IMG/VR virus record: IMGVR_UViG_2585427763_000002
Length of the DNA: 42,068 nt
Origin: a virus
Lineage: Duplodnaviria > Heunggongvirae > Uroviricota > Caudoviricetes
Reading direction: 5' to 3' (one strand)
Part shown: in pieces, positions 3,992 through 39,881 of the stretch
How the letters are laid out: the number at the start of each line of letters is the position of its first letter
Numbering within the stretch: position 1 is the first letter of the stretch
Translations under genes and position numbers: made by a program
The notes under the pieces: generated by a model
What the model saw: only the letters and a program-made list of their open reading frames with translations
Told to the model about the DNA's origin: nothing
Databases searched by the model: none

Positions 3992-4503
3992 GCCGCGTTT
4001 CCTTCTTTCTTATTAACAATCACACCGTCATATATTTCATTAAGGTGCCCTCTCAACTCCATGCGCCTTAATGCAGATAACATGTAATCGCATTCAACCT
4101 GCTTATTCCCAGTAAATGGCTTATCGTCAGGATTACCCCAACAGCAATTACCCCTGGGCCATCCATGTACTTTCCGTACTCTTCCGTTAACAACGTGAAG
4201 TAATCCCCAGCCGGGAGGTAAATCCTCAACTGAAATAATTTCCGGCTCACTAATAAAGAATCGCCAGTCGCCCATGCCAAGTGAGGGATTTTTACGGAAA
4301 CGCTTTTTTCTATCTGCCAACAAGTCAGCACGAGAACACTTCGCCTCTATCAGGCATGATGCTGAATTTCTGAATCCCATAGCATCTGGCTGTTCTCCGG
4401 TACTGGTTACAGCAACAAAGCGGTCATGAAAGCAAACCTTGAACCCGTTGCGCTTAAGGAACTTGTACGCAATCTGACAGAGTTCGTGGTGTGTTAACGC
4501 CAT
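3988..4503 (-). CDS. PD-(D/E)xK nuclease-like protein (family not identified)
   Basis: 171 aa from ATG at 4503 (TGATATG coupling to upstream gene); motif EQPDAMGF...(16 aa)...IEAKCSRADL fits PD...(D/E)xK. Confidence 0.5.
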   Translation of the reverse strand: MALTHHELCQIAYKFLKRNGFKVCFHDRFVAVTSTGEQPDAMGFRNSASCLIEAKCSRADLLADRKKRFRKNPSLGMGDWRFFISEPEIISVEDLPPGWGLLHVVNGRVRKVHGWPRGNCCWGNPDDKPFTGNKQVECDYMLSALRRMELRGHLNEIYDGVIVNKKEGNAA

Positions 4504-4504
4504 A

Positions 4505-4990
4505 TCACTCTCCTTTGATGCGAATGCCTGTTGCAATGCTGTTTATGATGCTGTCAGTGCATGGGGTAGAAAGCTGGGCATCTCCAGCAATTTTCATGAC
4601 CTCAACATCTGCATATCGAATACCGAGGTGTATCAGACCGGCTATGCCTGACTTAAGCCGAGCATTTTCCATAAATAGAACTTTTGCCCGCTGTTTTTCT
4701 GCTTCAAGCTCAACGCGCAGCTTCCCTACCGTTAGCGCAATATCCTCGTTCTCCTGATCGCGGCTTTTGATGTATTGCAGGTTTCTTTCCCGTTCATCCA
4801 GCAGTGCCAGCACGGTTTCTGGTCCGGTCAGAAATTTGAAGGCGTTGAGCGCATCAATATCCACACCGTAATCTTTAAGTTCCTGTTCACTTAACAAATC
4901 ATCATCAGCTGGCAACATTAACAGGCGTTCCATTGCTGGAATTGCACGTTCCGCCACCTCACGCAATGCCTGATAGTTAATTTGGGTCAC
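4505..4990 (-). CDS. Hypothetical protein, possibly Ead/Ea22-like
   Basis: 161-aa ORF, GTG start overlapping upstream stop (GTGA); coiled-coil-rich; family assignment from memory only. Confidence 0.5.
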   Translation of the reverse strand: MTQINYQALREVAERAIPAMERLLMLPADDDLLSEQELKDYGVDIDALNAFKFLTGPETVLALLDERERNLQYIKSRDQENEDIALTVGKLRVELEAEKQRAKVLFMENARLKSGIAGLIHLGIRYADVEVMKIAGDAQLSTPCTDSIINSIATGIRIKGE

Positions 4991-30640: not shown

Positions 30641-31990
30641 ATGGCTACGTGGCAACAGGGTATTAATTCTGGTGGTTTTCTGGCTGGAATTGGTGCGCAA
30701 AATGAGAATGCGCCAAAGGCAAGCGACATTAACGCAACGCTTGGTCTGATCCGCGAAAACAATGAACTGGCTCGATCAGGTGCAAATAACGTTGGTCTGA
30801 CCGCGTTACGTGGTCTGGCTGGAGTTGCTGATATTTATAAGCAGGAACAGCAACAGAAAGCGATTAATGCGTTCAATAAGGTTCATGCTGATGCATGGGC
30901 TTCTGGTGATCCATCGGGACTATTTAAGTTTGCCCAGGAAAATCCAGCGTTTGTTGCACAGGCACAACAGGCGTTTTCCGGTCTTAATGAGCAGCAACGC
31001 AACGATATGGGCGATTTAGCCATGAGGGCTAACGTCGCTCTTTCCCAGGGACCGGAAGCCTACAGTAAATTCATTACTGACAACAAGGACAGGTTAAATC
31101 GCGTTGGTGCTAATGCTGACTGGATGATTCAGACAGGTATCCAGAATCCAGAGCAGCTATCACACATGCTGACTACTATGTCTCTCGGTGCACTTGGGCC
31201 AGAAAAGGCGTTTGCTGTTCAGGATAAGATGGTTGGTCGCCAGCAGGAGCAGCAAAGAATTAACGAAACCATTCGCAATAATGACATGACGAATGCGAGG
31301 GCTATTAGGGGGCAGGATCTTTCCTATAAGGCTCAAATGGCAAGACTGAATCACGACAAGTATGTGTTTAAGCAGTCACAGGCGGCCCTTGAAAGAGCAG
31401 GACAACTTCAGGATATGGATGTTTTGTCTCTTAACTCACAGATAGCAGCGACGGGAATTGATCCGCTAACCGGTAAAGCTGCAACGTCAGCCAGAATGTC
31501 TCAGGCTAAGAGATGGCTTGATGGCAACAATAATTACAACAATGCGTTGATTACTGGTGAGCGAGGGATAGAGAAAATAGATTCTTTGCTTGGTAAGAAG
31601 GAGCTTGAAGGTATCGGTCGCTTCGAAGGAAGAAATATAGATGGCTTCACAAGTGCTGAAGGGCTTGCAAACCGTAATGCGATAGAAGAATTAAAGTCGG
31701 GTGCGTTTGTCCAGAACGTGCAGACTATGCGAGGTATGGGTAGCCTCTCCAATGCTGAAGGACAAAAACTGGAAAACCTTATCGCGAAACTCGATATAAC
31801 ACAGCCTGAAGAGGTCGTCAGAAAACAGTTATCTGAAATCCGATCGCAATATTCTGTATTTCAAAAGGTTGCAGCAAGGGAGGCTGAATCAATGGGATAT
31901 AGTTCATCAGGTTATGACACATATGTTAGTGAGCGAAAATCAGGAAGCGACAGCAATAAGTCCGGTTTCTCGTCTTTATGGGGTGATTAA
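30641..31990 (+). CDS. Ejection protein, P22 gp20-like
   Basis: 449 aa in conserved order after gp7-like gene. Confidence 0.65.
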
Positions 31991-34158
31991 TGGCTAAAGC
32001 ATGGAAAGATGTTATCGCTTCTCCACAGTATCAGGCGTTAACTGAAGAACAGAAAGCACAGGCTCAAGCGCAATATTTTGATGAGGTTGTTGCCCCTAAG
32101 GCTGGTGACAAATGGGCTGAAGCAAGAGATCAGTTTTATGCAGCATACCCTCCACCTCAGCAGCAGAAAGAAGAACCATCATTGATGCAACAAGCTGGTG
32201 ATTGGCTCACAGGTGGTCAAAGTGCAGGGCAAATTGCAGAACAGGCTGGTCGTGGTCTGGTAAACATACCATTTGACGTATTGCAGGGTGGCGCAAGTCT
32301 GATTAATGCAATCAGCCAGGGGCTTGGTGGCCCAAAGGTTTTGGATGATGTCTATCGTCCAGTCGATCGACCGACAGACCCTTATGCGCAAGCCGGTGAA
32401 ACAATTGGTGGGTATCTCCTGCCAATTGGCACAGCGGCAAAAGCTGCTGGAGCGCCAGCAAAGCTCGCTGGAGATATCGGTTCCGCAGGAAACATGATTG
32501 CAGGTTCTCTTGCTGATGCTGCAAATCAGGAGGGCGACTTTGCACAAAATGCTGCCATTAACGGTGGTATCAATATTGGTGCTCAGGGGATACTTTCTGG
32601 GGCTGGAAGGATCTTAACCTCTAAATCACCTCAAGTTCTTGGTGGCGGGGCAATAAATTCCGCTGCTGATGTTTCGAAAATGGCAAAGTCTGGTACAGGA
32701 AGAGAGATTATTGCCAGACAGTCAGCTAATGTGTCAGACGAAATAGCAAAAGCAGCAGATACTGCTGGAATAGATATCAACGCATTAACTCCTGGCATGA
32801 GATCAGGTAGTCGTGGTCTTGCTCAGGCGGAGGGGATTCTGGCGTCAAAGCCCGGAATTACACAGGATGCACACACCAAAGCATTCAGTGAAATAGAGTC
32901 GAAATTTAACTCAGCATTGGATGAGTTTGGGGCTGAAGCAGGAACTGCATCAGAAAAAAGTGCAGCCATAAAACAAAGGGTTTTGGCAAGTATTGATAAA
33001 ATGAAAAATTCAGAAAAGGCTGCATGGGATAGCGTCCGCTCCACGATGCCTGACGCAAAGGCCAGAATGTCAAACCTGAATGCTACAATTCAGGGTGATA
33101 TTTTGGCTGGCATGCCGCTAACTCCTGAGATGAAACAATTCGCATCTGCTTATGCTAAAACTGGTAAAAAAGGAATCACGTTTGATGCCATGAAGGCATG
33201 GCGAAGTAAACTTGCTGACGCAGAGCAGAAGTATATAAGGTCTGGTGAGGCAAATACGGCAAGGCGCATGGCGGAGCTTCGTGATGCAGCAACGGAAGAT
33301 ATGCGCATAATGGCTCAAAATGGCGGTTTTCTTGATGACTGGCAAAAAGCTAATGATCTGTCAAAGGCAAGATTTACAGCACAAGAACAGGCTGAAGCAG
33401 CGTTTGGTAGAGACCTTGCAACTGATCAGTTGGTAACTAATGGATCTAAGGCGTTACAGGGTTCAGCAAAAAGTGGAACAGGTCAGTTCCATAAAATAAT
33501 AAGCGCCCTACCTGAGTCGGAACGCGCGCCAGCAATTGCATCAATATTACAAGATGCAATGTCGCAAGGGGTACGCGGAGGTAAGTCTGAAGAGGCTGGA
33601 ATTAAGCATATCGCGACTATTCTTACCCCACAAAACGTGAAGGCAATTAGTCGATATTCTCCAGAACTTGGCAGGATTACAAGTTCATACGGAGAACTTG
33701 CACGAGCAGCAACAAAGCCACTTCGATATATTGAACAGACAGGGCGATCTATGCCAGCCATTAGCACTCTTGAGAATGGCCTTCATCCAGTTTTAGAGAG
33801 CGCATTGTCTGGCGCTTTTAGAACTACTGGCACTATCGCAGGGTTCTCTGGAGGAGGCGTTATTGGAGCAATAGCGGGTGGCGCTGCAGGTGGGGCAATT
33901 GATGCAATGGCAAAAGGAGCGATAGCGAAATTATCCGCAACTAGAAGCGGTCGTTACGCTATTGAAAAGGCTGTTCAAGAGGCAACAAAGGCAGTTAAGG
34001 TTGGGGCAAGTGATGGTGCATTAGCGGCGGCGGAACGCAGATTTATGGCAAATAAGGCCGCCGTAAAAGCAATACGCGAGGCACTAGGAAACGAAGAGTT
34101 CCAGCGTTTAGCAAGAGCTGGAATTGTGGCATCGCTAAGCGGAATGGCACAGGAGTAA
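31990..34158 (+). CDS. Ejection protein, P22 gp16-like
   Basis: 722 aa, Ala/Gly-rich; last gene of rightward virion operon before the accessory island. Confidence 0.65.
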
Positions 34159-34488
34159 TTAGTCATCCATGGATGGATTGAGCTTATCTCGTGTTGATGT
34201 GGCAATTTTCCCAACATTTTTCAACCAAGATTTTAAGAAGGATATGTCGTCCTTAATATCATGAATATCCTCATTCTTTATACGATCAACCTTATCCTCT
34301 AAGCTCTCTATAGAACGCTCAATGCTAGACAGAGAGATTTTTAAGTCCCCTTGCTCACGTTCCAGTGAGGATTTGAGAGCACAATATTCGTTTTCTAGAA
34401 TTCCTATTTTTTTTGTTAGAGAGTGCATTCGATACTCATACACCAAACCAGAAACGACTAATGCAGCCAACAGAAACCATTCAAGCAC
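34159..34488 (-). CDS. Small membrane-anchored coiled-coil protein (accessory; function unknown)
   Basis: 109 aa; N-terminal TM helix MLEWFLLAALVVSGLVYEY then heptad-like charged repeats; divergent from Panacea-like gene across AT-rich promoter region. Confidence 0.5.
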   Translation of the reverse strand: MLEWFLLAALVVSGLVYEYRMHSLTKKIGILENEYCALKSSLEREQGDLKISLSSIERSIESLEDKVDRIKNEDIHDIKDDISFLKSWLKNVGKIATSTRDKLNPSMDD

Positions 34489-34856: not shown

Positions 34857-35306
34857 GTGTTCATGCTTACTTGTTTTGATGTCGCCGACTACTTCCTGTC
34901 GCGGTGTGACGAGGATAGCGGTGACGCAATCTCTAATTTAAAATTACAAAAGCTTGTTTACTATGCTCAGGGTTTTTCATTGGCGTTGCTTGGCGAGCCT
35001 CTTTTTCAGAATAAGATGGAAGCTTGGATGCATGGCCCTGTTGTCCCTGAGCTTTATCACCGTTATAAACAATATGGTAATGGTGCTATCCCTTCTCCAG
35101 AGTCTTTTGATGCTGAAAAATTCAGCGAAGAACAGTTAGAGCTATTAGAAGAAGTCTGGGATGTTTTTGGGCAATTTTCTGCCTGGAAACTGAGGAACAT
35201 GACACACGAAGAGTCACCATGGAGATCAAACTATATTGAGGGTGTTGGTGGTTCTGAAATTAGTTCTAAGGAGATGGCAGAGTACTTTGCAACTCGGATT
35301 AACTAA
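34857..35306 (+). CDS. Panacea (DUF4065; SocA/GepA-type) domain protein, candidate antitoxin
   Basis: 149 aa; ISNLKLQKLVYYAQGFSLALLGEPLFQNKMEAWMHGPVVPELY matches the Panacea consensus as recalled. Confidence 0.6.
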   Translation: MFMLTCFDVADYFLSRCDEDSGDAISNLKLQKLVYYAQGFSLALLGEPLFQNKMEAWMHGPVVPELYHRYKQYGNGAIPSPESFDAEKFSEEQLELLEEVWDVFGQFSAWKLRNMTHEESPWRSNYIEGVGGSEISSKEMAEYFATRIN

Positions 35307-35310
35307 CGAG

Positions 35311-35730
35311 ATGGCAAGAAAATCTAAAAGGATTATCCCCCCTGCTGAATCTACAGGTAAGTTAAAGTTAGGGCCGCAGTCAGGGGGGAATTCAGATCAA
35401 AAGAAACCGAAATTTTCATTCTGTTACATCCAAAGCTCTCACTGCATAACGAAATGCCAAAAAGATGAGAAAGCTGGCTTAGCTGATAAATTATACAGAT
35501 TAAGTCAACTAACATGGGCAGATATTAAGCAGCAAGGTAGGCATAAGCTTGGATTTGAGAAGATTGCAAGGGGTGCAATTAAAGCAGGTATCCCCAGTCA
35601 TATAACGGAAGACGTAGATCATTTCTTGGCTTTTAGATTTGATGATTTGAAAGCCATGGTTGGTTATCGTCTTGGATCGACATTTTTTGTTATATGGCTT
35701 GATAGAGAGTTCAACCTATACAAGCACTAA
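35311..35730 (+). CDS. Unknown protein coupled to Panacea-like gene (candidate toxin/effector)
   Basis: 139 aa from ATG 35311, 4 nt after upstream stop; basic N-terminus; no recognised family. Confidence 0.5.
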   Translation: MARKSKRIIPPAESTGKLKLGPQSGGNSDQKKPKFSFCYIQSSHCITKCQKDEKAGLADKLYRLSQLTWADIKQQGRHKLGFEKIARGAIKAGIPSHITEDVDHFLAFRFDDLKAMVGYRLGSTFFVIWLDREFNLYKH

Positions 35731-35731
35731 T

Positions 35732-35757
35732 AAAACCCCCCGTCAGGTGGGTTTTTT
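35732..35757. terminator. Putative bidirectional terminator between convergent genes
   Basis: AAAACCC-(10 nt loop)-GGGTTTT with T-run, between 35730 (+ gene end) and 35743 (- gene end). Confidence 0.4.
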
Positions 35758-35994
35758 GTACAAATCCTTCAGCGTATCAAACACCATCTTCCTAACAAGT
35801 TCGGACTGCTCATCAGCGATGCGTTCTGCATCGTCTCGATAGCCTGCAATTGGTGATGGTTTTGATAGCGCATCCTGAACGATTTGTAATAACTCTGAGT
35901 TCATTGACCTTCCGTTAGCCTCTGCTCTTAATTTCAATTTTTCTCTTACTTCCAAAGGCATACGGAAGTTAAAGTGCGGATCGTCTCTAGCCAT
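35743..35994 (-). CDS. mnt: Mnt repressor (Arc/MetJ ribbon-helix-helix), P22 immI type
   Basis: 83 aa, MARDDPHFNFRMPLEVREKLKLRAEANGRSMNSELLQIVQDALSKPSP... recalled as near-identical to P22 Mnt. Confidence 0.8.
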   Translation of the reverse strand: MARDDPHFNFRMPLEVREKLKLRAEANGRSMNSELLQIVQDALSKPSPIAGYRDDAERIADEQSELVRKMVFDTLKDLYKKPT

Positions 35995-36017
35995 GCCATC
36001 ACTCCAAGTTAGTATCT

Positions 36018-36281
36018 CTAACTTTCGTCTTTATTGTTGCTATACATGCATTTCAACTTCTCAACATCATGTTCAAGATCTATCAATCGTGATGCTATAG
36101 TTGCAAGGTCTAGTGCTTGAATGTGTTTATTTTTTTCGGTCCATGCTTCAAGTGCCGCGACCATCTCAGCATTTAATGAACGAGAATTAGCCTCAGCCAG
36201 TTCAATAAGACGTTCCTTTATCTCTACAGGAAGCCTCAGATTCACTTGAGGGTTTTTGTACTTACGATCAGACATCGGCAC
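36018..36281 (-). CDS. Second ribbon-helix-helix (Arc/Mnt-like) protein
   Basis: 87 aa; PQVNLRLPVEIKERLIELAEANSRSLNAEMVAALEA RHH signature plus C-terminal extension. Confidence 0.6.
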   Translation of the reverse strand: MPMSDRKYKNPQVNLRLPVEIKERLIELAEANSRSLNAEMVAALEAWTEKNKHIQALDLATIASRLIDLEHDVEKLKCMYSNNKDES

Positions 36282-36380
36282 ATCCTGAATAATTTTTTAC
36301 CACAGGATATGTAGGTATCTATTGACTATCAATGCGTACCTAAATACTATGTATGCGTACCACATACAACGGAGGATGCA
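36282..36380. promoter_or_regulatory. Divergent immI-like promoter/operator region
   Basis: AT-rich interval with direct repeats ATGCGTACC (x2) between leftward RHH genes and rightward arc-like gene. Confidence 0.45.
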
Positions 36381-36521
36381 ATGAAGGTAAAAACACTGCG
36401 TATGCCAGAGAAGTTAGAAAAAATCCTTGAAGAGAAAGCAAAGGAAGAGTGTCGCTCATTTAGTGCAGAAGTAATTAAACGGGTGATGGACAGCCTGAAG
36501 AGAGAGGGGATAACGGTATGA
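36381..36521 (+). CDS. Arc-like ribbon-helix-helix repressor
   Basis: 46-aa ORF (MKVKTLRMPEKLEKILEEKAKEECRSFSAEVIKRVMDSLKREGITV) after GGAGGA; below ORF-track cutoff. Confidence 0.5.
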   Translation: MKVKTLRMPEKLEKILEEKAKEECRSFSAEVIKRVMDSLKREGITV

Positions 36522-36721
36522 GTAAAGAATGTTGTTTCTGCGGCATTAGCGAATCAGACGCTGATCAAACATACATTTACTCTAAAGAAACAGGTCGGAT
36601 GCTGTGTAGTGACTGCGTGTTGGACATCATAAGATACAAGCATCTTGGATGTTCTGCCAGCATTAGCAATATAGGTGAAGTATATGAAGGGAAAGATATA
36701 ACTGATAGAGCAGAAAGTTGA
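36518..36721 (+). CDS. Small zinc-ribbon-like protein
   Basis: 67 aa with CxxC...CxxC pattern (CCFCG ... CSDC); ATGA-coupled to arc-like stop. Confidence 0.45.
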   Translation: MSKECCFCGISESDADQTYIYSKETGRMLCSDCVLDIIRYKHLGCSASISNIGEVYEGKDITDRAES

Positions 36722-36784
36722 AGCCCCAACTGCGGTAACAGTCAGGGCTTCGGTATCGTAAAACCACGCATAGGAATTAACGAC

Positions 36785-37708
36785 ATGAAAAGTATAGCAA
36801 CAGCAGTATCTACTATCAATGTACCATTCCACGGCGCAGAGCTTTATGTTGTCAATCACAACGGTGAGCCGTACACCCCAATGAAACCTATCGTTGAGGG
36901 AATGGGTATGGATTGGGCTTCACAGTTTACAAAGTTAAAACAAAGATTTGCTAAAGGTATTGTGGAAATCGCAATACCTTCAGTTGGCGGTGTGCAGAAC
37001 ATGATTTGCCTTGCTTTACGTAAACTTAATGGCTGGTTGCAAACCATCAGTCCTAACAAAGTCCGCCCTGAAATCCGCGACAATGTAATCCAGTATCAAG
37101 AAGAGTGTGACGATGTGCTATACGAGTACTGGACTAAAGGCCATGTAGTTAACCCACGCAAAGCTAAAAAGGCGTTGCCGGGTAAAATCACCACTGAGCA
37201 GCAGGAAGCCATTAAACAACTCGTCATGAGTCGCGGTCAGTCTCTGCCAAAAGAAAAACAGGCTAAGGCGATGATCACCATGTGGTCGTCACTGAAATCC
37301 CATTTTGGATGTTCGTACAAAGAAATCAGTGAGGAGCAGTTTACCGAAGCACTATCGCTTGCAGCTCGAGTTCCACTTGAAGGTGAGTTCATTGGCAAAC
37401 AAGAGAAGAAAACCAACGAGCTTTCTGCAAAAGAAGCAAACAGCCTTGTATGGCTATGGGATTATGCCAACCGCTCACAGGCATTATTCCGCGAATTGTA
37501 TCCGGCGCTAAAACAAATTCAATCGAACTATTCAGGCAGATGCTACGACTACGGTCATGAGTTCTCGTATGTTATCGGAATGGCGAGAGATGTTTTAATT
37601 AATCACACACGAGATGTTGATATCAATGAGCCAGACGGACCAACGAATCTTTCTGCATGGATAAGACTTAAGAACAAAGAATTACCTCCTTCAGTACATA
37701 ACTACTGA
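36785..37708 (+). CDS. ant: Antirepressor (Ant-like)
   Basis: 307 aa downstream of arc-like gene as in P22 immI; followed by strong terminator. Confidence 0.65.
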   Translation: MKSIATAVSTINVPFHGAELYVVNHNGEPYTPMKPIVEGMGMDWASQFTKLKQRFAKGIVEIAIPSVGGVQNMICLALRKLNGWLQTISPNKVRPEIRDNVIQYQEECDDVLYEYWTKGHVVNPRKAKKALPGKITTEQQEAIKQLVMSRGQSLPKEKQAKAMITMWSSLKSHFGCSYKEISEEQFTEALSLAARVPLEGEFIGKQEKKTNELSAKEANSLVWLWDYANRSQALFRELYPALKQIQSNYSGRCYDYGHEFSYVIGMARDVLINHTRDVDINEPDGPTNLSAWIRLKNKELPPSVHNY

Positions 37709-37727
37709 CAGATAAACAACGCAACGA

Positions 37728-37750
37728 CCCAGCTTCGGCTGGGTTTTTTT
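37728..37750 (+). terminator. Rho-independent terminator after ant
   Basis: CCCAGC-TTCG-GCTGGG followed by TTTTTTT. Confidence 0.7.
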
Positions 37751-37808: not shown

Positions 37809-39881
37809 ATGACAGACATTACAGCCAATGTTGTAGTGAGTATGCCTTCGCAACTCTTCACTATGGCGCGTTCTTTTAAAGCCGTAGCCAATGGCAAAAT
37901 TTATATCGGTAAAATTGACACTGACCCGGTAAATCCTGAAAACCAGATTCAGGTTTATGTGGAGAACGAAGATGGTTCTCACGTTCCTGTTGCACAGCCA
38001 ATCATCATTAACGCTGCTGGTTACCCGGTATATAACGGACAGATTGCCAAGTTCGTAACTGTGCAAGGCCATTCTATGGCTGTTTATGATGCATACGGTG
38101 TGCAGCAGTTCTATTTTCCTAATGTGCTGAAGTATGACCCGGATCAGTTGCGACAGCAATTATTAAACCCTGACACTGGCCTAGGAGATGCGCTTGTTAT
38201 TGTTAAACAGCCATATGCTGGTTCTGTACCTATTACTCAACATCAGCACAACACCTATCTCCTTACCCCTTACCACTTCGCAGCAAAGGGAGATGGTATT
38301 ACAGATGACACTCTTGCCCTAAACCGCTGGTCCAATTGCGGAGCTAAGGTACTCTATTGGCCAGCAGGAAAATATCTGGTGAGCCCTACAAATGGTGTTT
38401 CTCTGGATATGGATAACTACCATACAGGGGATTCCGCACTAACGGCGTGCGTAACCGTTCCCTATGGCGTGAAAATTTATACGGCTGGGACAGAAACCCA
38501 GTTATGCGTGAAGGATGCTGACTCAGCATCGACCGTAGGTCTGGCCGTTAGCTACCCGGAGTCAAGTTATTCCCAGGGAGAAACCGACATCGGAAAATTC
38601 ATGATTCGCCTGGAAAACGGAAATGGTCGGTACGGTATTCTTACTCCACTCAGGGGGGAAATGTTCACTGCGCACCGGGCGAAGTTCAAATTAGGAGCGC
38701 ATTTCGGTCCTCAACAGGGGCGTGATGACCTGACGGTGCTACAGTATTCGTGGGTAAATGGCATGCTGATTGGCGACGCTTTTAGCGGCTCAGTGCATGT
38801 CACTGGATACGGCAGCTATAACGTACAGCAGGTTGAAGGTACGCAATTCCAGTGCGTGGCCGTTAAGATGAAGTCCGTTCGAGGTAACGTAGGTGTAGAC
38901 ATCAGATTCAACACAAACAACTGGTGGAAGTTTGTCGAACTGAGTGACGGCGTTGAAGGGTTTGTTGTCAAGGACAGCGAAGGGCTTGGGGCATTTGTTG
39001 GAATCGACCTAACCAACCCAGCCAGCGAGCCAGGTGGATTTATCGATAACGTACACGTCAACGTTAAGCAAAACGGAGTACGAGCCAGAAACAGGCCATC
39101 CCTGCAAATCGGAAACATTGAAGTCTATAAAAGTGATGGATTTGCCACTGACCTTGTTTACGATGCGGTGCTTCTGGTTGACTGCCAGGAAGTGACTATC
39201 AACTCTATTCACGCAATCGTCGGCAACTCAATCACAAATGCTCAGTCAGTAGTTAACTCGACAAACAGCACATTCCGCCTGAACTCATACTTTGCGCAAA
39301 ACATCAGGTTCGTCGATTTTGTGGTTAATAGCCCTGACTGCTATGTCGGAGAGGGGACAATTAACCAGGTCGAGGCAGTTCACTCACTTTCTGGATCACA
39401 AAGCAACGACTTCCACGGTAGTGATGTTCTGGTTAGATCCTACAGAAACAACGTTCGCCCACTTTACGCAGTGATGGATTCCGCTTTCAACAGGGCAAGG
39501 GCGAGGTTTCCACAAAATACAAGCCTCCAGGTGAGAACCTTTCTCGACTACACTGTGGCAGCAGCTGGGACTTTAACAATAGAACCAAGGCTTGACCCAT
39601 CCAGGTACTACATCATCATGAGTGCTGGTACAGGTGCCTTCACCTATTCAATTGAGCTGGATAAAGTGTCTGCCGTAGTTGGTGATATTGTTTACATAAA
39701 GATAGCCGGGTCATCATCTGCTAACCCAACAGTTTTGGTTAAAAATGGTATTGGTGGGACAACGCTCAGCACATTCAATAATATCGGTCCGATTCGTTTG
39801 AATTGTGCTTACAGATTTAATGAGTCAGGTAACTGGGTGGCCTACTACATTACCCAAAGCGTTGAAACCACTTATGGCTAA
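37809..39881 (+). CDS. Tailspike protein (P22 gp9-type head-binding domain with a different receptor-binding domain)
   Basis: 690 aa; N-terminus [59 protein letters not shown]... recalled from P22 tailspike; remainder diverges. Confidence 0.85.

Follow-up and report, generated by a model that had tools for sequence, protein, structure and literature searches.

In phage P22, the immI region (or 'ant moron', which controls the antirepressor Ant) is laid out as mnt-arc-ant and lies between the DNA-transfer gene 16 and the tailspike gene. Its 90-bp control segment contains Pmnt, Oarc, Omnt and Pant, with Oarc placed between the -35 and -10 boxes of Pant. For the ant morons of the CUS-3 type, Villafane et al. 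(2008, PMC2629481; the locus is drawn in their figure 3) wrote that arc is apparently missing and that ant must be controlled in another way. Furthermore, phages L and ST64T are on record as having orphan mnt-like genes, for which no explanation was offered (PMC8022706). Here, the corresponding region of the tailed-phage record IMGVR_UViG_2585427763_000002 is compared with these systems; the whole stretch analysed, 42,068 nucleotides, is referred to as the window. The region carries a P22-type mnt, a second gene for a Mnt-family ribbon-helix-helix (RHH) protein, an Arc-like gene, a small gene with four cysteines, the antisense RNA sar and ant. The interpretation, with a probability of about 0.6, is that a P22-like E. 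coli prophage has here the CUS-3-type, mosaic version of immI.

Mosaic structure of the immI-type region

The leftward arm of the region consists of the P22-type mnt (35743-35994, minus strand, 83 residues; Pfam Arc E-value 1e-27, Repressor_Mnt 1.6e-17) and, upstream of it, the second RHH gene, called RHH2 (minus strand; open reading frame (ORF) 36018-36281, likely gene 36018-36275, 85 residues; Pfam Arc 3.4e-10). Across a divergent interval of 105 bp (36276-36380), the rightward ant operon begins with the gene of a 46-residue Arc-like repressor (36381-36521, plus strand; Pfam Arc 2.9e-9). This is followed by a 67-residue ORF, the Cys4 ORF (36518-36721, plus strand), with two CxxC knuckles (Cys5/Cys8 and Cys30/Cys33) and without a Pfam match, and by ant (36785-37708, plus strand, 307 residues), whose product matches P22_AR_N (3e-44) and P22_AR_C (6e-30). 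The sar RNA is encoded on the minus strand between them (36716-36783; Rfam RF00262, 85.7 bits for a gathering score of 43, E-value 6.5e-18). It is complementary to the ribosome-binding-site region of ant, and the terminator stem that forms its 3' end shares bases with the Cys4 stop codon. Within the 5' part of ant, a scan detected a Psar-like promoter (TTGATA and TATACT, 17 bp apart, with TG; 36819-36791, minus strand). The locus is flanked by the gene of a DNA-transfer protein (gene 16 homologue, 31990-34158) and by a head-binding tailspike gene (37809-39881), as in the P22-type immI.

A preliminary description of this DNA had recognized an immI-type switch with a P22-like Mnt, three RHH proteins and a CxxC...CxxC protein ahead of ant. 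All of the ORFs named there were recovered at the same positions, the three RHH proteins all match Pfam Arc, and the Mnt, the Arc-family first gene, sar, the Ant domains and the P22-type genome position support the assignment to immI. It had overlooked sar, the Psar-like promoter and an 18-nt inverted repeat at the overlapping -35 boxes of the divergent promoters. The departure from the P22 layout is also real, since RHH2 and the Cys4 gene are missing from P22. The same description had regarded the layout as unusual; this part is abandoned on the comparison with CUS-3 given below.

At the DNA level, the P22-type mnt, sar and ant are at least 87% identical to P22, and the junctions of this homology were located in an alignment made by eye. 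On the left, the homology spans mnt and 19 bp of its leader (35995-36013, GCCATCACTCCAAGTTAGT) and then ends; on the right, it restarts exactly at AGTTGAAGCCCCAACTGCGG, the sar terminator. Between the two junctions, P22 has its 90-bp control segment and arc, whereas the window has about 700 bp containing RHH2, a new divergent interval, the Arc-like gene and the Cys4 gene. An exchange bounded by these junctions, upstream of the mnt Shine-Dalgarno sequence and at the sar terminator, would have swapped the P22 control region and arc for this cassette.

Neither of the P22 operators is retained. With up to three mismatches allowed, Omnt (AGGTCCACGGTGGACCT) and Oarc (ATGATAGAAGCACTCTACTAT) gave no matches in the whole window. 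P22 and the P22-like locus L022 both contain the Omnt core CCACGGTGG, which was found neither in the window interval nor in any of the tandem-layout loci examined. A clean palindrome occupies the Omnt position in P22, L022 and phage Emek, whereas the window interval is without a clean one. A match of the interval to Oarc, attempted by eye, was dropped for want of a convincing register. Compared with P22, the window shares the genome position, a Mnt with an identical DNA-reading N-terminus, sar, the Ant domains and the logic of divergent promoters with an Arc-family gene first. It differs in the exchanged control region and arc, in the demotion of mnt to the second gene of the leftward operon, and in the additional Mnt-family and Cys4 genes.

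The closest described relative is phage CUS-3 (CP000711), in which the block of RHH2, the Arc-like gene and the Cys4 ORF is 98.1% identical at the DNA level over 731 bp. The same block is 100% identical in a prophage of E. coli STEC346. Among 5,426 complete E. coli genomes, the full-length block is found in 56 and some portion of it in 537. The four-gene set is carried by eight further assemblies, where tailspikes and Ant N-domains vary. Given the match to CUS-3 and the many E. coli prophages with the block, the layout is not unusual; it is the standard one of a described relative and no one-off, an outcome that the preliminary description had itself named as a refutation. CUS-3 shares the tandem mnt-family genes, the divergent Arc-like gene, ant and the slot between the DNA-transfer and tailspike genes. 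However, its left accessory genes are a YafO-like gene and hypothetical genes instead of the Panacea pair of the window, and its tailspike is unlike that of the window. In sum, the region is one mosaic version of a well-known system, and a described phage already has it.

In the CUS-3 record, two 'mnt' genes and ant are annotated, and the Arc-like and Cys4 genes are hidden inside a 'boundary sequence' feature. The absence of arc from this annotation led to the statement of 2008 that arc is lacking. Since the Arc-like gene and sar are both present, the apparent loss of arc in CUS-3 is an annotation gap and not a real difference. PGAP now annotates all three RHH genes, and the Cys4 ORF is still skipped.

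The repressors and the promoter core

The likeliest start of RHH2 is the ATG at 36275, which has an AGGA Shine-Dalgarno sequence 7 nt upstream and is the start in CUS-3 and in PGAP annotations; a GTG start at 36281 is less likely. The protein belongs to the Mnt family over its full length, matching phrog_795 over residues 1-82 (2e-25; the P22-type Mnt matches the same family at 7e-35), with 1MNT as its best match in the Protein Data Bank (PDB) (1.7e-5, residues 8-72). The phrog_795 match covers the C-terminal helical region, in agreement with the C-terminal extension earlier attributed to the second leftward RHH protein. The Pfam model Repressor_Mnt gave no match to RHH2, and its reading strand, Q-x-N-x-R, resembles that of Arc. 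The Arc-like protein is 38% identical to P22 Arc (BLASTP E-value 7e-10) and is named 'Arc family DNA-binding protein' by PGAP.

In the immI regions of Salmonella phage SEN22 and E. coli FDAARGOS_772, these two proteins are the sole repressor pair. Both regions have an RHH2 orthologue, an Arc-like orthologue with an identical N-terminal strand and a near-identical operator core, but they lack a downstream P22-type mnt and a type-A Cys4 gene (the type found in the window). RHH2 is 84% identical in amino acids to the sole Mnt-like protein of SEN22. Compared with SEN22, RHH2 and the Arc-like protein both keep their DNA-reading N-terminal strands unaltered (MKVKTLRMPE in the Arc-like protein), while the remainder of the Arc-like protein has diverged, with a nonsynonymous substitution rate (dN) of 0.36. 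Ratios of dN to the synonymous rate (dS) are 0.03-0.09 for RHH2 and about 0.08 for the Arc-like gene. At the DNA level, the conserved promoter/operator core of about 65 bp (36303-36368) differs from SEN22 by 2 substitutions only, with about 79% identity in the flanks and overall. That proteins and core sites are conserved together is the chief argument for regarding RHH2 and the Arc-like protein as the cognate regulators of this interval. Together with the operator core, the two repressors behave as a self-contained unit, known also from loci that have no P22-type mnt, and RHH2 is the likely working maintenance repressor of the switch.

The predicted rightward promoter (TTGACT 36322-36327, TACTAT 36345-36350, plus strand) and the predicted leftward promoter (TTGATA 36332-36327, TATCCT 36309-36304, minus strand) have overlapping -35 boxes, on which the 18-nt inverted repeat (36308-36325 and 36329-36346) is centred. 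The direct repeats reported by the preliminary description are indeed found there and nowhere else: two copies of ATGCGTACC (36332-36340 and 36353-36361), 21 bp apart, are the only ones in the window, for a chance expectation of about 0.21, and a count of two was reached in 1 of 100 shuffles. The first copy lies in the spacer of the rightward promoter. The second lies at its +1, inside an imperfect palindrome, TGTATGCGTACCACATACA (36350-36368), whose position matches that of Omnt in P22. The spacer of the leftward promoter carries a mirror-image box. The assignment of a particular repressor to a particular box would be conjectural.

It is proposed that, in the lysogen, a single transcript from the leftward promoter would yield both RHH2 and the P22-type Mnt. 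By binding the repeat boxes, which cover the spacer and +1 of the rightward promoter, RHH2 would hold the Arc-like gene, the Cys4 gene and ant silent. Upon infection, the rightward promoter would fire, and the accumulating Arc-like protein would close the switch. In addition, sar would damp the translation of ant, as in P22.

As Omnt and Oarc are missing from the window, the P22-type mnt would be an operator-less downstream passenger of this switch. Its product is about 90% identical to P22 Mnt, with residues 1-13 identical and 2 differences in the first 47 residues. RHH2 and mnt are likely co-transcribed, since they are separated by a gap of only 23 bp (35995-36017, minus strand) without a terminator; direct comparison with P22 places mnt's own Shine-Dalgarno sequence (GGAG) in this spacer. 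Four diverged mnt alleles from tandem-layout loci are all intact, with pairwise dN/dS of 0.05-0.13 and dS of up to about 1.5, values that point to purifying selection on mnt. Targets in trans do exist for such a protein, because a P22-type control region, 99% identical to that of P22, is found in 173 of the 5,426 E. coli genomes. The P22-type Mnt would most likely act in trans on the P22-type Pant/Omnt of co-resident or superinfecting phages, providing a second immI immunity specificity.

Two considerations speak against this proposal. Local boxes in the core (AGGTAT, and AGGTAC on the other strand) match the Omnt half-site AGGTCCAC at 4-6 of 8 bases, which makes it conceivable that the P22-type Mnt may bind them weakly in cis. 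Moreover, its low dN/dS may partly date from canonical P22-type contexts, before recombination.

The four-cysteine protein of the arc-ant slot

Start and stop codons overlap (ATGA) where the Cys4 ORF follows the Arc-like gene, and GAGGGG stands upstream, an arrangement of translational coupling. The product of the Cys4 ORF, the type-A protein, belongs over its full length to phrog_7150 (3e-50). Among 50,697 phage records, the gene was found in CUS-3 only, where it is unannotated, and a word-indexed search for homologues returned relatives of at least 85% identity only. An exhaustive search of representatives gave 13 matches, including one small homologue, P0015 (68 residues, 37% identity). The other 12 (501-2,382 residues, mostly matched in several stretches) were treated as compositional artefacts; the two that were inspected (P0008 and P0011) are Ig-repeat proteins. 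A profile search added P0020, a type-B homologue named 'ClpX-type ZB domain-containing protein' in UniRef. Both P0015 and P0020 occupy the same slot in P22-like prophages of Salmonella and E. coli, where they are coupled to arc through an overlapping start. Elsewhere, the slot is held by P0006 (60 residues), a clear homologue of the ClpX zinc-binding domain (Pfam zf-C4_ClpX 4e-11; 1OVX 5e-8).

Several comparisons connect the Cys4 protein itself with this domain. It aligns in register with P0006 (BLASTP E-value 0.025), and its profile matches ClpX zinc-binding domains in hhalign with a probability of 89% and an E-value of 2e-6, although the profiles are thin. It shares phrog_5259 (6.7e-5) with P0006 (9e-8). 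The type-B relative reaches 13.2 bits against the Pfam ClpX model (E-value 0.086), and in a search of the PDB with a joint profile of types A and B, ClpX appears only at an E-value of 1.9. The four cysteines (C5/C8 and C30/C33) are invariant in types A, B and C and in E. coli ClpX, and are kept across same-slot relatives of about 35% identity. A model built with AlphaFold2 from a five-sequence alignment has predicted local distance difference test (pLDDT) scores of 72-76 over residues 1-40, and ClpX ranked first among its Foldseek matches (2DS5, template-modelling score 0.68, root-mean-square deviation 2.1), with RING fingers interleaved. The single-sequence model has a pLDDT of 56 and gave no usable Foldseek match. 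These links are consistent and individually weak.

The likeness to the N-terminal zinc-binding domain of ClpX (PF06689; PDB 1OVX, 2DS5-8) and its stand-alone phage copies (P0006, phrog_5259) extends to the CxxCG ... CxxC(V/I) pattern, to a predicted topology of beta-hairpins followed by a helix, and to the arc-coupled slot, which is common to a bona fide homologue of the domain. Unlike the ClpX domain, the Cys4 protein has three additional residues between the knuckles and a 25-residue disordered tail, falls below Pfam detection and has no AAA+ module; it also lacks the cysteine that ClpX and P0006 have three residues past the second CxxC knuckle. Homology of the Cys4 protein to the ClpX-type zinc-binding domain is considered likely, and the protein is probably a divergent stand-alone version of this domain with a disordered C-terminal tail. 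A ClpX-related function is put forward more tentatively, being rated as somewhat less likely than not. Made in the early Pant burst, the protein would most likely bind the N-domain of ClpX or its ligands and alter the handling of a phage or host protein by ClpXP.

Several observations weigh against this interpretation. The Pfam models, including zf-C4_ClpX (PF06689), did not match the Cys4 protein even at E-values of up to 10. All Foldseek matches to ClpX zinc-binding domains are non-significant (E-values of 0.1 or higher), and the alignment behind the structural model included a ClpX-domain homologue. The ORF is frameshifted in the lambdoid prophages of hundreds of O157 genomes and is not called by PGAP. 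The related type-B gene, with a dN/dS of about 1.2, gives no support for coding constraint; for the type-A ORF, the same test was not possible because of too few substitutions. Finally, in other phages the arc-to-sar slot contains unrelated fillers or nothing, which counts against a function for the Cys4 gene.

Much of this is also what would be expected if the region contained recombination debris, with the P22-type mnt as a functionless remnant, retained because the junction fell upstream of it, the 67-residue ORF as an unexpressed or dispensable filler of a hypervariable slot, and a switch made only of RHH2, the Arc-like protein, sar and ant. The lack of an operator for mnt fits that explanation, as does phage Kapi1, in whose lysogens the single mnt is not detectably expressed (PMC12922286). 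Nevertheless, we consider it unlikely, in view of the intact mnt in four diverged tandem-layout alleles with low dN/dS and an invariant reading head, and of a Cys4 ORF that belongs to a PHROG family and has kept its Shine-Dalgarno sequence, its ATGA coupling and all four cysteines across distant same-slot relatives. Kapi1 had been considered as a tandem-mnt phage with expression data and was rejected, having a single mnt.

It could also be that the Cys4 protein is a zinc ribbon that binds nucleic acid or a partner within the switch, acting as a co-repressor alongside the Arc-like protein or modulating either Ant or the translation of ant, and is unrelated to ClpX. Its coupling to the Arc-like gene directly upstream of sar and ant would suit such a role, and so would the silence of zf-C4_ClpX. 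In addition, RING and treble-clef fingers are among its top hits in sequence and fold searches, with similar, non-significant scores; the PDB sequence and Pfam searches returned only RNF4 RING and UPF0167 matches, none of them significant. However, the hhalign result, the phrog_5259 match common to a true ClpX-domain protein, the UniRef name of the type-B homologue and the allelic replacement by a clear ClpX-domain homologue all argue for kinship with ClpX, and the P22 and SEN22 switches work without any Cys4 protein. We regard the zinc-ribbon role as quite improbable and retain the divergent ClpX-type domain as the preferred identity of the protein.

The slot between arc and sar/ant is hypervariable, and other forms of it were recorded. 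A lambdoid prophage of E. coli O157:H7 EDL933 (locus L003, 2525-4180) has an immI-like module beside nleL within its tail operon, as does locus L011. The module consists of an 84-residue Mnt-like gene, Arc, a frameshifted type-A Cys4 ORF, sar and Ant, and its Cys4 region, 97% identical to that of the window, is left unannotated by PGAP in hundreds of O157 genomes. Locus L004 (3025-3206) has a type-C ClpX-zinc-finger gene with an in-frame TGA where P0006 has Gly13, a nonsense allele, and its ant is split by IS2. The slot is filled by a coupled 73-residue ORF without cysteines (phrog_11805) in Emek (L007, 1842-2063) and 611R6 (L008, 1884-2105) and by a 57-residue GTG ORF in FDAARGOS_772 (L010, 2297-2470), and it is empty in P22 and SEN22. 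A 112-residue fusion of the Arc-like and Cys4 proteins (P0001, from a Logan contig) was seen in one assembly and presumably arose from an indel at the ATGA overlap. Small stand-alone ORFs resembling the ClpX zinc-binding domain, mostly annotated as hypothetical, also occur in the unrelated phages Cr30, Bacillus phage G (gp258), P88 and PhiR44_2. A literature search on phage ClpX-zinc-finger proteins retrieved nothing relevant, and PADLOC gave no match to the Cys4, ClpP-like (see below) or RHH2 proteins.

Neighbouring genes and implications for immI control

To the left of mnt, an accessory island on the plus strand (34857-35730) encodes a 149-residue Panacea/SocA-like protein (Pfam 8e-25) and then a 139-residue protein (phrog_8366; weak PADLOC NsnC match, 4e-6). 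The two genes, which are also found in phage Emek, are probably a PanA-type toxin-antitoxin or defence pair. A scan detected a terminator-like hairpin followed by a T-run (35739-35751, plus strand) at the junction of the island with the 3' end of mnt, and P22 has the same hairpin.

The island bears on the least probable of the explanations, that of the preliminary description, in which a P22-type mnt-arc-ant core, suggested by the high identity of mnt, sar and ant to P22 and by the absence of RHH2 and the Cys4 gene there, has gained a second RHH and a zinc-ribbon protein that add a regulatory layer or control the island: the P22 operators are gone, the promoters are abutted by RHH2 and not by mnt, the supposed extra RHH2 forms with the Arc-like protein a module complete on its own in SEN22 and FDAARGOS_772, so that the relation of core and addition is reversed, ATGCGTACC is restricted to the divergent interval, and the island genes converge on mnt from the opposite strand and end at the terminator-like hairpin. 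No feature of the region pointed to a regulation of the island by the switch.

Further to the left, an hkcB homologue (34159-34488, minus strand, 109 residues; phrog_5962, predicted coiled coil) adjoins the DNA-transfer gene and is conserved in CUS-3 and HK620-type phages. To the right, the scan detected a terminator-like hairpin (37726-37745, plus strand) 3' of ant and before the tailspike gene. Some P22-like prophages, namely L017 (4256-4756), L024 (4291-4749) and L023 (Kapi1, 4054-4554), have an inserted gene for an HNH endonuclease at this place, after ant and before the tailspike gene.

In some P22-like prophages, a gene for a 178-residue ClpP-like protein (PF00574, 1.2e-12) overlaps the mnt stop codon: L013 (1953-2489), L022 (1968-2504) and L024-L027 (about 1967-2503), all on the minus strand. 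The gene after arc in these prophages is of the ClpX-zinc-finger-like kind, type B or type C; the window has no ClpP-like gene. The 193-199-residue gene downstream of mnt in CUS-3-type loci was examined as a further candidate and rejected, as it is not ClpP-like.

A joint reading can be formulated, in which tandem Mnt paralogues would give each prophage two immI specificities and protect the lysogen from trans-induction, with RHH2 acting against the prophage's own ant and the operator-less P22-type Mnt against that of incoming or co-resident phages whose immI is P22-type, and the arc-coupled genes would encode free mimics of the ClpX zinc-binding domain that retune the choice of ClpXP substrates or adaptors in the early Pant burst. 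As a whole, this remains rather doubtful.

The class of system described here is itself well known, and the leads that it offers are modestly novel. For the literature, the comparison provides a correction: CUS-3-type ant morons do carry an Arc-family gene and sar after all. It also documents what appears to be a natural whole-module swap of repressor-operator specificity in the classic Mnt/Arc system, leaving one repressor site-less yet conserved. This operator-less conserved Mnt gives a concrete case in which trans-acting immunity between prophages could be tested. The second lead is that P22-like prophages of E. coli and Salmonella repeatedly carry small ClpX-zinc-finger-like genes, most of which RefSeq leaves unannotated, at a fixed position coupled to arc. 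Some of these prophages also carry the ClpP-like gene in the mnt operon and, if these genes are functional, the control of the antirepressor would be linked to ClpXP proteolysis.

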